Shown: one piece after another, positions 3,129 to 24,560 of the stretch
Numbering within the stretch: position 1 is the first letter of the stretch
Layout of the letters: the number at the start of each line of letters is the position of its first letter
From: an uncultured Gaiellales bacterium
GTDB lineage: Bacteria; Actinomycetota; Thermoleophilia; RBG-16-64-13
DNA: 55,349 nt
NCBI GenBank assembly: GCA_964631965.1
Contig: CAZWAR010000006.1
Location: forward strand, 1 to 55,349
Direction: 5' to 3'
Notes under the pieces: generated by a model
What the model saw: the letters and a program-made list of their open reading frames with translations, nothing else
Told to the model about the DNA's origin: nothing
The model's database searches: none
Translations under genes and position numbers: made by a program

Positions 3129-3824
3129 TCAGTCCCGGTCGGCGGAGAATTCCTTGATGATCTCCACCGCGCGGGAAGTCCCGATGCGAGCCGCACCGGC
3201 GTTGATCATCAATTCGGCGTCTTCCGCGGTATCGATGCCGCCGGAGGCGTCCACCCCCACACTCTCCGGGAGGAGGTCGCGGAACAACTCGACGTCTTTG
3301 GCGGTGGCGCCGCCGGGAGCATAGCCGGTTGACGTCTTGATGAAGTCGGCACCCGAGTCTTCCACGATCTTGCAGACCAGACGCTTGAGCTTGTCGTCCA
3401 GGTAGTAGGCCTCGACGTCGGCCTTCACCAGGACAAGGCCGCGCCCGGCATTGACACTGGTCATGCGGACGGTGCGCACGACGCTGCGCAGCTCGTCCCG
3501 GACGTAGCGAAAATCGCCGGAAAGCATGGCCGGAATGTTGAGGATCACATCGAGCTCGTCCGCGCCGAGGGCTACCGCCTGCTCGGCGCCCGTTATCTTC
3601 GTGCGCTGCGAGTCGGCGCCAAGAGGATAGGATACGACCGTCCCCACTTTGACGTCGTAGCCCTGCAGCAACTGCCGGGCCACCGGAACACAGTACGGAA
3701 GCACACAGACCGAGGCGAAGTGATAGGAGATGGCGTCCCGGCACAGGGCCTCCACGGCAGTGGTCGTGCTCGTGGCCTCGAGCAGGGTGCTATCTATGGT
3801 CTTCGCAAGTTCTTCGACTCTCAC
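3129..3824 (-). CDS. deoC: Deoxyribose-phosphate aldolase homologue with atypical active site
   Basis: GADELDV, FIKTSTG (Schiff-base Lys), RIGTS; but VDASGGID replaces VKASGGIR; GTG 3824 after AAGGAGG. Confidence 0.85.
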   Translation of the reverse strand: MRVEELAKTIDSTLLEATSTTTAVEALCRDAISYHFASVCVLPYCVPVARQLLQGYDVKVGTVVSYPLGADSQRTKITGAEQAVALGADELDVILNIPAMLSGDFRYVRDELRSVVRTVRMTSVNAGRGLVLVKADVEAYYLDDKLKRLVCKIVEDSGADFIKTSTGYAPGGATAKDVELFRDLLPESVGVDASGGIDTAEDAELMINAGAARIGTSRAVEIIKEFSADRD

Positions 3825-3939
3825 TGCCCGCCTACCTCCTTCGGTGGACATCTATCATACACTGCCGGGCAACCCCTCCTTCCACACGGGGCCTTCCGGG
3901 ACGGGCAAGGCTGCGTTCCGGATCCGGACTCGAGATGCG

Positions 3940-4389
3940 TCAGGAGAACCGCCAGCGCAGGATGTGTCTATCTTCATTCTCCCCATAGAAATCGGGGACG
4001 AATCCGTCCTCCACGAACCCCACGCTCCTGTAGAGAGCAAGAGCCGCCTCATTCGCGGGAGCTGCCGTCAGCAGCAAACCCTCCGCTCCAAGCGTGCGAC
4101 TCTCTCGGGCCACCAGCCGCAGAAGTTCACGGCCGAGACCACGTCCCCTCCACTCCGGCCTGACGTAGAACCCCACCACATAGAAGAAGCCGGGCTCATC
4201 AAGGACCCGCATGAGTTGGCAGCCTCCAACGATCTCCTCCCCGAGGCGAGCGATGAAGACGGCGCCGGCCTGGGCCATCACGGCCAGGTCGTATGTCCGA
4301 AGGCCGGTGGGACCGAAGGCATCCGAGTCGTACGCCGCGAGCCGTTCGAGCAGCTCGGGGCTCGGGTCGGCGACCCTGACGAGCCTCAT
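3940..4389 (-). CDS. GNAT N-acetyltransferase (RimI-like)
   Basis: VRPEWRGRGLGRELL acetyl-CoA motif A; NEAALALYRSVGF motif B; start set at ATG 4389. Confidence 0.85.
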   Translation of the reverse strand: MRLVRVADPSPELLERLAAYDSDAFGPTGLRTYDLAVMAQAGAVFIARLGEEIVGGCQLMRVLDEPGFFYVVGFYVRPEWRGRGLGRELLRLVARESRTLGAEGLLLTAAPANEAALALYRSVGFVEDGFVPDFYGENEDRHILRWRFS

Positions 4390-4442
4390 GCCTGCACCCG
4401 CGCCGTCGGGCCGACCGGCAGTTCCGGGATCCGGCCGGGACC

Positions 4443-4781
4443 TCATTCTCCCGGGATCTCCCCGGCGGTCACGAGCACCCAGCGGCCCAAGTACTTCAGC
4501 ACCACCGGCGTCTTTGGGTCGAGGTCCCCCACCCCCTCGCGCCAACCGGCGGCCGGCAGGACCGTCTCCTCCGTCTGCCCCGCCACTGCGAAGGCCAGAG
4601 CCTCGGCCTCGGTACCGCAAGCCGCCACCTCGGCGAGGGTGAACGCCAGTCCGGTGCGGGCATATACCTTCCCGTCGTGGCCGAGAGCCGCCCAGCCTTC
4701 GGCGCGCGGGCCCGTCGCGGCCGCAGCCTTGGCGGCATCGATCAGACGCCCGAGTTGCGGGGTGAGTCTGTCCTCGTCCAC
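4443..4781 (-). CDS. Degenerate cytidine-deaminase-like protein lacking zinc ligands
   Basis: LIDAAKAA, WAALGHDGKVY and LPAAGWRE align by eye to Cdd LIxAAxxA, GAALLxxDGKIF and SPCGACRQ; occupies the cdd slot after dgkA; AGGAG SD. Confidence 0.6.
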   Translation of the reverse strand: MDEDRLTPQLGRLIDAAKAAAATGPRAEGWAALGHDGKVYARTGLAFTLAEVAACGTEAEALAFAVAGQTEETVLPAAGWREGVGDLDPKTPVVLKYLGRWVLVTAGEIPGE

Positions 4782-22682: not shown

Positions 22683-22683
22683 C

Positions 22684-23943
22684 TCAAGTCCCCATGTGCC
22701 AGCTGTTGAGGTACTCCACCTGCTCCGGGGTGAGTTCGTCGATAGCGGTGCCAAGCGAGGCCACCTTCAGGCGAGCGATCTCCCGGTCGATGTCCTCGGG
22801 CACGTCGTACACCTTCTTCTCCAGGGTCGCGGCGTTCTTCACCATGAATTCGGAGGCCAGAGCCTGGTTGGCGAAACTCATGTCCATCACGCTTGAGGGA
22901 TGGCCTTCCGCAGCCGCCAGATTGATGAGCCGGCCCTCACCCAGAAGGTAGATGTTGCGGCCGTCCGCCATCGTGTACTCGTCCACGAACTCCCGCACCC
23001 TGCGCGTGCCCGTAGCCAGCCCCTCGAGGGCCGGGATGTCGATCTCCACATTGAAGTGGCCCGTGTTCGCGACAATAGCACCGTCCTTCATGACCTCGAA
23101 GTGCTCTCTCCGAAGCACGTGGATGTCCCCAGTAGCGGTGATGAAGATATCGCCGATGGGAGCGGCGTGGGCCACGGGCATCACCCGGTAGCCGTCCATG
23201 ATCGCCTCCAGAGCGCGCAGCGGATCGACCTCGAGCACGACGACGTCGGCCCCGTGGCCTTTGGCCCGCATGGCCACGCCGCGACCGCACCAGCCGTAGC
23301 CGGCGATGACCACCACTTTGCCGGCGATCATGCGGTTGGTGGCCCGGATGACCCCATCGAGAGTAGATTGTCCAGTGCCGTACCGGTTGTCGAACATGTG
23401 CTTGGTCATGGCCTCGTTCACGGCCACGATGGGATAGCGAAGCACCCCGTTCTCTTCCATCGACTTCAGGCGGATGACTCCGGTAGTGGTCTCTTCGGTC
23501 CCCCCGATGACACCCTCGGCGGCTTCCTTCCGCTCGCTATGGAGTAGGCCAACCACGTCGGCGCCGTCATCCATGGTTATCTGAGGATGAGTATCGATGA
23601 CACTCATGATGTGCCGGTAGTACGTGTCCCGATCCTCGCCCTTTATGGCGAAGGTCGCGATCCCGTACTCGTGGACGAGCGCAGCGGCGACGTCGTCCTG
23701 AGTGGAAAGCGGGTTGGAGGCGCAGAGAGCCAGTTCGGCTCCGCCCGCCTTGAGGGTGCGCATGAGGCTCGCGGTCTCGCTGGTGACGTGCAGGCAGGCC
23801 CCGATGCGGACGCCGGCAAGCGGCTTCTCTCGTTCGAACCGTTCCCGGATCATCGCGAGCACCGGCATCTCCTTCTCCGCCCATTCGATCCGAAGGACTC
23901 CGGACCTAGCCAGGCTCGCGTCCTTCACGTCATGTGCCACCAC
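22684..23943 (-). CDS. ahcY: S-adenosylhomocysteine hydrolase
   Basis: [45 protein letters not shown]. Confidence 0.97.
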
Positions 23944-23972
23944 GCCCGTCTCCTTCTGTCAAGCCTCTTGGC

Positions 23973-24560
23973 TCATCTGACCATCACCATCGCGGCCACC
24001 CGCAACCCCATGTGGGCCGCGACGATGACCGGGGCGACCAGTTCTGAACTGACCGCCGCCCACCGAAAGCGAGAGAGCACCTCGGACTCGTACGCACTCA
24101 GACGCCGGTCGTCCGCGACGCCCGCCACCACTCCGCGGACCACTATCATACCGTCCTCAGCGCCGTCGGGCTGCGGGACCTCCAGAGAAGCGTAGATGCC
24201 GCCCATGCTCGGGAAGCGTGGGCCGGCCGAGTCATCGTTGGGTCCGACCAGCGGTGAGCGCCACGTGAGATTCACGTGATCGGTGACGCTCACCACTCGA
24301 GCAGGAACTTCGACTCCGAATCCTTCAGTGGGAGCCGATGGGTCCGCTCCTCTGCATACGAGGCCGATGACCCCTGTGCTGCCGCGCAGCACCTTCATCA
24401 GCGTGTCGACCTCGGCCGCACTGTAGCCACGAAAGGGATTGCGGAGACCGAGGGCGGAAAGCGAGACCACATCTCCGTTCTCTCCGGCCAAGCGGGCGCA
24501 CAGCCGGGCGACGGTGCCGGCCGGGTCCAGGTCGAGACGGGGACAGGCGAGCACCCTCAC
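23973..24560 (-). CDS. Degenerate purine-nucleoside-phosphorylase-like protein (pseudoenzyme or pseudogene)
   Basis: DHVNLTWRSPLVGPNDDSAGPRFPSM and VIVAAHMGLRV match PNP-I; catalytic motifs absent; start uncertain. Confidence 0.65.
   Translation of the reverse strand: MRVLACPRLDLDPAGTVARLCARLAGENGDVVSLSALGLRNPFRGYSAAEVDTLMKVLRGSTGVIGLVCRGADPSAPTEGFGVEVPARVVSVTDHVNLTWRSPLVGPNDDSAGPRFPSMGGIYASLEVPQPDGAEDGMIVVRGVVAGVADDRRLSAYESEVLSRFRWAAVSSELVAPVIVAAHMGLRVAAMVMVR

Follow-up and report, generated by a model that had tools for sequence, protein, structure and literature searches.

Three descendants of cdd, punA and deoC with altered active sites in an uncultured Gaiellales bacterium

What becomes of the genes of a pathway when the enzymes they encode depart from their canonical active sites and the reading frames nevertheless stay open? 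This question is raised by a 55,349-nucleotide stretch of contig CAZWAR010000006.1 from an uncultured Gaiellales bacterium (hereafter the window), in which three genes resemble deoC, encoding deoxyribose-phosphate aldolase (DERA), cdd, encoding cytidine deaminase, and punA, encoding a trimeric purine-nucleoside phosphorylase (PNP). All three are uninterrupted frames on the minus strand. The first-pass annotation had described them as catalytically eroded in parallel, either because nucleoside salvage was being lost from the lineage or because the proteins had been retained in a non-catalytic or repurposed form. From the results presented below, we consider it probable (about 0.7) that the three genes are in-place descendants of working cdd, punA and deoC genes, which lost canonical catalytic residues and have since been kept under purifying selection.

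The window has a G+C content of about 65% and carries housekeeping genes, nearly all of them on the minus strand. Judged from related loci, the host is an uncultured member of the Actinomycetota, labeled Thermoleophilia or Gaiellales by NCBI. Its clade of uncultured Thermoleophilia-related Actinomycetota comes from salt-marsh, wetland, and sediment samples, and salt-marsh metagenomes hold DNA near-identical to the window. The genes in question lie in two strings, PhoH - 7TM-HD - YbeY - DgkA/PAP2 - Cdd-like - GNAT - DeoC-like - RecO and LCP - PNP-like - AhcY - MtnA - sugar-1-phosphate nucleotidyltransferase - ComF - HPF - SecA.

Active sites of the three proteins

The DeoC-like protein belongs to the family of DERA (EC 4.1.2.4). 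It scores 207.7 bits against the equivalog model TIGR00126, for which the cut-off is 117.3, and aligns end to end with the solved TIM-barrel enzymes, including Thermotoga maritima 3R12 (E 2e-46) and Escherichia coli 1JCL. It shares with them the Schiff-base lysine Lys172 (in FIKTSTG), Asp101 (in ELDVILN; the equivalent of Asp102), Lys143 (the equivalent of Lys137), and the Gly/Ser motifs that bind phosphate. However, the motif GVKASGGIR has become GVDASGGID, which places Asp201 at the position of E. coli Lys201, and VKVIIE on strand beta-5 has become VKADVE. According to review passages that cite the original mutagenesis, Lys167 and Lys201 of DERA are critical for activity, and Asp102 and Lys201 are the proton-transfer residues (PMC6244999, PMC8403123). 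The DeoC-like protein is therefore missing one of its three named catalytic residues, not all of them, and the description of this gene as eroded has to be given up: what has changed is one remodeled active-site pair, K201D together with I145N/D.

This pair is rare in the family at large. We surveyed 150 representatives of the wider DeoC family, taken from clusters at 50% identity, and found Lys in the 201 column in 144 of them. Of the remaining six, two have gaps there, and the four that align with a different residue are without the Schiff-base lysine as well. The 145 column holds Ile or Val in 146 of the 150. Against these representatives, the combination of a kept Schiff-base lysine with Lys201 to Asp and Ile to Asn/Asp is unique to the clade of the window. 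Further clade-specific changes are, within segments of the active site, C149Y after strand beta-5 and G178A in the KTSTGxG loop, and, elsewhere in the protein, D32A and K131T.

Other departures from the DERA active site were seen outside this clade. Two Thermoleophilia homologues of DeoC (L036:6001-6693 and L048:6001-6693) carry Glu where the Schiff-base lysine should be (FVETSTG and FVESSTG) and keep Lys201, and the family representatives P0224, P0225, P0252, and P0304 lack both lysines. Because of these cases, degenerate DERA-like proteins seem to arise repeatedly.

The Cdd-like protein is invisible to family models: it has no Pfam or NCBIfam match at E values up to 0.1, and a Pfam domain was found in none of its 84 homologues. 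Its descent is nevertheless clear from more sensitive comparisons. In hhalign, the profile of 18 orthologues matched the canonical Cdd of relatives over the full length at 98.3% (E 2e-14), and the AlphaFold2 model (pLDDT 88.8) retrieved in Foldseek only tetrameric cytidine/blasticidin deaminases, the top ones being all tetrameric Cdd (probability 1.0, TM about 0.7). With homotetrameric Cdd, represented by Bacillus subtilis 1JTK and mouse 1ZAB, it thus shares the predicted fold, full-length profile homology, and the slot after dgkA, but not the catalytic residues. In motif states read from alignments, LAFTL stands at the position of CAER and PAAGW at that of PCxxC, so that the zinc ligands and the catalytic Glu are absent; the ribose-binding NVEN segment (Asn-x-Glu) and the YAPYSGF segment are also gone, as is the C-terminal Phe. 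The catalytic Glu is absent in 20 of the 20 orthologues inspected in relatives. The family comprises at least 84 clusters of consistent length and has invariant motifs of its own, GRLID...AK and GRW, which have no counterpart in canonical Cdd.

For the PNP-like protein (PNPL), the extent of the gene had to be settled. The longest open reading frame (ORF), 23973-24731 (252 aa), runs into the LCP gene, and in its first 50 codons the G+C content of the three codon positions follows the wrong pattern. The true gene is 23973-24560, encoding 195 aa, with a GTG start at 24560 preceded by GAGG. Codon-position G+C thus bears out the placement given by the first-pass annotation, which had also pointed to uninterrupted frames and Shine-Dalgarno-like sites; these are indeed present, as GAGG here and as AGGAG 9 nucleotides upstream of the Cdd-like gene. 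The 252-aa ORF scored 44.7 bits against TIGR01697 (cut-off 197.1), covering only the C-terminal half of PunA-type models, and made a marginal match, again to the C-terminal half only, to PF01048 (28.8 against a cut-off of 25.1). The hhalign comparison of PNPL with canonical PunA of other Actinomycetota gave a probability of 99.15%. The AlphaFold2 model (pLDDT 88.7, pTM 0.87) matched trimeric PNPs in Foldseek with a probability of 1.0, a query TM of 0.6-0.67, and a target TM of about 0.45, reflecting a shortened fold.

Compared with trimeric PNP (PunA/PNP-I; 4M1E and human PNP), PNPL shares the core fold, the position upstream of ahcY, and the loop DHxNLTWRSPLxGPNDxxGPRFPxM (in the family form DHxNL...PLxGPND..G.RFP.M), which in PNPs lies at the trimer interface. 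However, it is about 80 residues shorter and lacks the N-terminal helix, the GH.G hairpin, and the C-terminal helix. None of the ten substrate-contacting residues that were mapped (human PNP numbering) survives: each is replaced or missing. In the phosphate site, R84 has become Leu/Val, H86 Asn/Asp, N115 Val, and A116 Cys69, the Ser33 loop GSGLG reads CPRLD, and the phosphate-binding S220 is replaced by an invariant Glu173. In the base and ribose site, F200/E201 have become Arg/Leu and M219 Ser, Y88 corresponds to a variable column, occupied by Phe in the window, and, as the chain stops where T242 would be, there is neither N243 nor the C-terminal helix that carries H257. Glu158 was considered as the counterpart of human PNP Glu201 and was rejected, as both HMMER and hhalign place it in a conserved PAE motif and Glu201 is lost. 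The loss of essential residues claimed for the Cdd-like protein and for PNPL thus stands, in contrast to DeoC.

PNPL is a stable, conserved family inside a conserved operon. Database searches gave 422 matches, and the best 120 of these are 107-231 aa long, nearly all of them 184-231 aa, with about 99% query coverage; the family comprises at least 120 sequence clusters. Among 32 aligned members, R44, C69, S171, E173, and H183 are invariant, and D150/D151 are nearly so. The gene order LCP-PNPL-AhcY-MtnA-NTP transferase is kept in members whose PNPL is only 51-52% identical, and in the conserved loci PNPL overlaps the LCP stop by 4 nucleotides and the AhcY start by 1-14 nucleotides. The former phosphate pocket holds the conserved acidic residues D150, D151, and E173 and a cysteine, which speaks against the binding of anions and leaves room for a new ligand or a partner protein.

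Selection and order of events

A search anchored on DeoC gave 80 species-level loci, which we grouped by DeoC identity to the window: group A (27 loci, 87-97%; 28 sequences including the window), the sister group B (71-78%), and group C, comprising the rest (58-64%). A listing anchored on AhcY contributed as useful loci L081 and a few Actinomycetota, and PNPL frames were read in five loci. Statements on residue loss concern genes at their ancestral loci. For DeoC the altered states are found again in 27 related species genomes, for the Cdd-like gene in 20, and for the PNP-like gene in at least 120 protein clusters, so that the pattern is not due to chance. Assembly or sequencing error was considered as their source and ruled out, as the same states occur in many independent assemblies.

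The neighborhoods of these loci show that all three genes descended in place from cdd, punA, and deoC, in agreement with the profile and fold comparisons. In groups B and C, the slot after DgkA is filled by a canonical Cdd (YAPYSGF, NVENAS, CAER, PCGxC), followed by GNAT in some loci, then Era and DeoC, and DeoC has GVKA[AS]GG and VK[VA]I[VI]E. In group A, the slot is either empty or occupied by the degenerate Cdd-like gene, the locus lacks Era, and all 27 DeoC proteins have GVDASGG and VKA[N/D]VE. The era gene lies between GNAT (or cdd) and deoC in all sister and outgroup loci inspected (L026, L030, L034, L042, L046, L058, and L067; at about 4900-5950 in L026-L080), whereas it is not at this position, 3851-3940 of the window, in the window or in any of the 27 genomes of the Asp201 clade, a statement that concerns this locus only. 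At the other locus, and among the matches listed, a full-length PunA lies directly upstream of AhcY-MtnA in three more distant Actinomycetota (L104, L120, and L146), and PNPL fills the same slot in the window, in four close relatives (L161-L164), and in L081.

The three changes did not happen at once. L081 is on the same group B contig as L028, which keeps a canonical Cdd and DeoC with Lys201; because PNPL is already present in this group B lineage, the decay of PNP is the earliest event. The genomes with Asp201 form one clade on the independent DgkA tree (SH-aLRT 97), and therefore only one K201D change is required. On this tree, the removal of Era from the locus coincides with DeoC K201D and with the inactivation of Cdd, which places these three events later, on the stem of group A. 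Erosion in parallel, as first supposed, is thus replaced by a nested series with PNP first, followed by Cdd and DeoC.

Within group A, the Cdd-like gene looks dispensable and has eroded stepwise. The Cys triad is kept with the Glu lost (CAV, CHA, CGAAE) only in five basal lineages (L008, L014, L019, L021, and L023), and the zinc ligands have gone from a derived subclade, to which the window belongs. On the tree, the gene was cleanly deleted at least three times independently (L007, L017, and L064), and it is also missing in L006, L011, and L020, which are outside the tree.

To measure selection, we used pairwise Nei-Gojobori (NG86) estimates of dN/dS. Pooled values over distant pairs are inflated by saturation, reaching 0.44 even for canonical Cdd, and therefore only close pairs, with bootstrap 95% intervals on the tested pairs, and relative dN were used. 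The ratio is 0.013-0.055 for DeoC (interval 0-0.036), 0.13-0.38 for the Cdd-like gene (0.08-0.40), and 0.21-0.35 for PNPL (0.13-0.39); point estimates for YbeY, DgkA, GNAT, LCP, ComF, AhcY, MtnA, and the NTP transferase are 0.04-0.27. As a negative control, the RecO region 2321-3030 read out of frame gave ratios of 1.1-4.9 at very low dS; the procedure therefore reports high values where there is no coding constraint in the frame. No in-frame stop or frameshift was found in the inspected frames (20 Cdd-like genes and PNPL in five loci), and the third-position G+C of the genes is typical of coding sequence. Purifying selection thus acts on all three genes, and none of them is a plain pseudogene, because the ratios are well below 1 with intervals of about 0.4 or lower. 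Ratios near 1 accompanied by frameshifts in relatives, by which the first-pass annotation would have recognized pseudogenes, were not seen.

DeoC is the slowest-evolving of the 11 genes measured, about three times slower than AhcY in the same genome pair, and 161 of its 240 positions are invariant in the 28 sequences of group A. Its dN relative to that of DgkA falls from 0.83 in group C to 0.47 in group B and 0.23 in group A, so that constraint rose after the K201D and I145N/D change. The dS of DeoC is close to that of neighboring genes, and the constraint therefore acts on the protein. In a wetland metatranscriptome run, contigs 85-92% identical to the deoC gene, with differences mostly at third codon positions, span the Asp201 codon without a difference there. 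They lend weak support to transcription of deoC in a relative, with DNA carry-over being possible. For PNPL, no RNA run was found.

Neighboring genes

The features discussed here are collected in the table. The expectation that the neighbors would keep canonical motifs proved sound. The dCMP deaminase, which serves as an internal control for the deaminase fold, has HAE and PCVVC intact, and ThyX, AhcY, MtnA, and GuaB are strong family matches.

Coordinates of the main features in the window and the basis of their assignment
Feature	Position	Strand	Basis
DeoC-like class I aldolase of 240 aa, with E. coli DERA Lys201 replaced by Asp	3129..3851	-	TIGR00126 and full-length alignment to solved DERAs
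Codon GAC, Asp201, replaces the second active-site Lys (E. coli K201)	3249..3251	-	alignment
Codon AAG, Lys172, Schiff-base lysine kept (E. coli K167)	3336..3338	-	alignment
Codon GAC, Asp145, strand beta-5, replaces a near-invariant Ile/Val; Asn in most of the clade	3417..3419	-	alignment
GNAT acetyltransferase between the Cdd-like gene and DeoC (context)	3940..4386	-	PF00583, 65.8 bits; start ATG at 4386
Cdd-like protein, 112 aa, zinc ligands and catalytic Glu absent; occupies the ancestral slot of cdd behind dgkA	4443..4781	-	profile and fold comparison
DgkA-PAP2 fusion; synteny anchor upstream of the cdd slot	4815..5546	-	domain matches
Sugar-1-phosphate nucleotidyltransferase, left-handed beta-helix, same operon as the PNP-like gene	20515..21513	-	domain matches, operon
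MtnA (methylthioribose-1-phosphate isomerase)	21510..22754	-	TIGR00512, 424 bits, match from ORF residue 72
AhcY (S-adenosylhomocysteine hydrolase), immediately downstream of the PNP-like gene	22684..23943	-	family match
PNP-like protein (PNPL), 195 aa, shortened PunA-type fold	23973..24560	-	profile and fold comparison
LCP (LytR-CpsA-Psr) family gene, directly upstream of the PNP-like gene	24586..26541	-	family match
dCMP deaminase, HAE and PCVVC intact, control for the deaminase fold	35154..35636	-	motifs

Several neighbors are of interest in their own right. DgkA-PAP2 is one 243-aa protein that joins a diacylglycerol/undecaprenol kinase domain (residues 18-119) to a PAP2 phosphatase (167-242), and the fusion is kept in nearly all related loci. 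MtnA, whose ORF start is probably over-extended, has a fold like that of eIF2B alpha/beta/delta and is always followed by the left-handed beta-helix nucleotidyltransferase, which makes a weak match to the eIF2B-epsilon LbH model (20515-22754). The two form a conserved bacterial eIF2B-like pair within LCP-PNPL-AhcY-MtnA-NTP transferase-ComF-HPF-SecA. Two neighbors in related loci, AhcY of L161 (5465-6842) and Era of L026 (4980-5900), are each split over two frames, which are probably assembly frameshift errors and not real disruptions.

Farther along the window, a 529-aa ORF at 36965-38554 joins the release-factor methyltransferase PrmC (PrmC_N and MTS) to a Sua5/YciO/YrdC (TsaC-like) domain, and a 685-aa ORF at 44887-46944 combines holo-ACP synthase (ACPS), YjeF_N epimerase, and NAD(P)HX dehydratase domains. 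An RF-2-type release factor ORF of 442 aa lies at 15117-16445, and its PCRF domain does not begin until residue 96, owing either to an over-extended start or to the usual programmed +1 frameshift of prfB, hidden in this reading.

Explanations and their meaning

Working ancestors of the three genes stood at the same positions, and PNP decayed first, followed by Cdd and DeoC. We propose that the Cdd-like protein and PNPL are now non-catalytic pseudoenzymes that keep their folds and, in PNPL, also the oligomer-interface loop, and that both probably serve as small oligomers that bind a ligand or a partner. For PNPL, this would probably be in concert with the translationally coupled AhcY/MtnA operon; because of the tight coupling to AhcY, this methyl-cycle operon would be its likeliest partner. 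Hydrolysis of S-adenosylhomocysteine is pulled forward by the removal of adenosine, and for this reason the ancestral pairing of PunA with AhcY makes sense. The Cdd-like protein would be only weakly needed, and its loss from some lineages may be under way.

The DeoC variant probably still uses its pocket, because it retains, without variation, the Schiff-base lysine, Asp101, Lys143, and the Gly/Ser motifs for phosphate binding. Its acid-base machinery would be rewired, with Asp201 and Asn/Asp145 in place of the Lys201 relay, as the exchange of a pKa-lowering lysine for a carboxylate, together with a polar group on the neighboring strand, suggests. Some class I aldolases pair a Schiff-base lysine with a carboxylate. 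The variant would no longer be a standard DERA and would have a different, strongly selected reaction or role, the substrate or the reaction probably being changed. From the residues it keeps and those it has exchanged, we lean slightly toward a protein that is still catalytic but not a standard DERA; a non-catalytic role seems rather less likely, and ordinary DERA activity would be surprising. A bolder form of the proposal, which we offer only tentatively, is that the DeoC variant may be a new class I (Schiff-base) enzyme with a Lys-Asp-Asn/Asp set in place of the Lys-Lys-Asp relay of DERA, catalyzing another reaction that matters more to the cell than cleavage of deoxyribose phosphate, and that the Cdd-like protein and PNPL may be ligand-binding or partner subunits, PNPL for example serving as a trimeric partner of AhcY/MtnA or as a nucleoside sensor for them.

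Several points weigh against the proposal as a whole. Measured against DgkA, the Cdd-like gene is about 1.6 times faster in its evolution than canonical Cdd (relative dN of 2.16 against 1.36). It has also undergone at least three deletions and may thus be retained weakly or conditionally, and there was no depth over it in the one RNA run examined. The RNA evidence for deoC consists of contigs of a relative only. For many pairs the dS, at 0.4-1.2, approaches saturation, and NG86 gives crude estimates. The term non-catalytic is itself drawn from missing residues, and Asp201 could in principle act as a general base and give some DERA-like activity.

Of the two outcomes foreseen by the first-pass annotation, retention is favored by dN/dS well below 1, intact frames, and conserved operon positions with overlapping stop and start codons, and loss in progress holds in part, for the Cdd-like gene. 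As an account of both proteins, loss of the pathway in progress would mean that selection on the Cdd-like protein and PNPL is relaxed and that both are remnants the cell can do without, with the residual constraint coming from the essential operons through translational coupling or avoidance of toxic misfolding. The stepwise path of the Cdd-like gene from the loss of Glu through that of the zinc ligands to at least three deletions, its relative rate raised above that of canonical Cdd, and the stop/start overlaps of the PNPL operon would all fit this account. We consider it unlikely, however, as both families have acquired new invariant residues of their own and have dN/dS similar to that of the working neighbors LCP and ComF, and as PNPL has persisted since before the split of the sister lineage, at 41-68% identity and stable length, with no deletion seen in the loci available.

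That the DeoC variant is instead an ordinary DERA, with Asp201 and Asn/Asp145 making up for the lost Lys201 and nucleoside catabolism running through intact cdd and pnp paralogues elsewhere in the genome, strikes us as somewhat less likely still. A score well above the TIGR00126 cut-off and the invariance of the Schiff-base lysine, Asp101, Lys143, and the Gly/Ser phosphate motifs speak for it, and a carboxylate beside the Schiff-base lysine is found in many class I aldolases. On the other hand, the constraint on DeoC jumped after the substitution, which suggests a changed role, and two upstream genes of the pathway appear catalytically dead at their ancestral loci. An acidic neighbor would be expected to raise, not lower, the pKa of the Schiff-base lysine. 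Lys201 is present in 144 of the 150 family representatives, no other lineage pairs a different residue with a kept Schiff-base lysine, and Lys201 is described as critical in the review passages cited above (PMC6244999, PMC8403123).

Neutral decay of plain pseudogenes, their frames persisting by chance in a G+C-rich genome that yields many long spurious ORFs, could appeal to the missing family match of the Cdd-like gene and its deletion in several relatives, but is very improbable in view of the bootstrap intervals of about 0.4 or lower, the intact frames inspected (20 Cdd-like genes and PNPL in five loci), the at least 84 and 120 clusters of consistent length with invariant motifs of their own, the confident predicted folds, the conserved operon coupling, and the coding-type third-position G+C.

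Little work has been done on bacterial pseudoenzymes. The Cdd-like protein and PNPL resemble them in having lost catalytic residues and kept the fold, and both have remained under purifying selection after the loss. They differ from the known cases in that a single lineage shows changes at three steps of the same pathway. No published pseudoenzyme form of bacterial Cdd, PunA, or DERA was found in open-access papers and preprints.

The finding bears on annotation. As the DeoC variant scores as an equivalog, automated pipelines will call it a working deoxyribose-phosphate aldolase, and some sources already label PNPL homologues as purine-nucleoside phosphorylase, so that metabolic reconstructions of this widespread sediment, wetland, and salt-marsh clade would wrongly include nucleoside catabolism. 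Two dead families, with at least 84 Cdd-like and 120 PNPL clusters, are unannotated. Of the three proteins, we find the hyper-conserved K201D DeoC the most intriguing: DERA is a heavily engineered industrial biocatalyst, and a natural K201D/I139N variant under extreme purifying selection is a test of how replaceable the Lys201 relay is. The interpretation given by the first-pass annotation is thus supported in part. The three genes are retained, repurposed, or remodeled descendants of a dismantled pathway and not pseudogenes, and they differ in timing and fate. They provide a dated, stepwise case of one pathway being dismantled, in which DeoC became hyper-conserved, PNPL a stable shortened scaffold, and the Cdd-like protein a gene that is slowly being lost.

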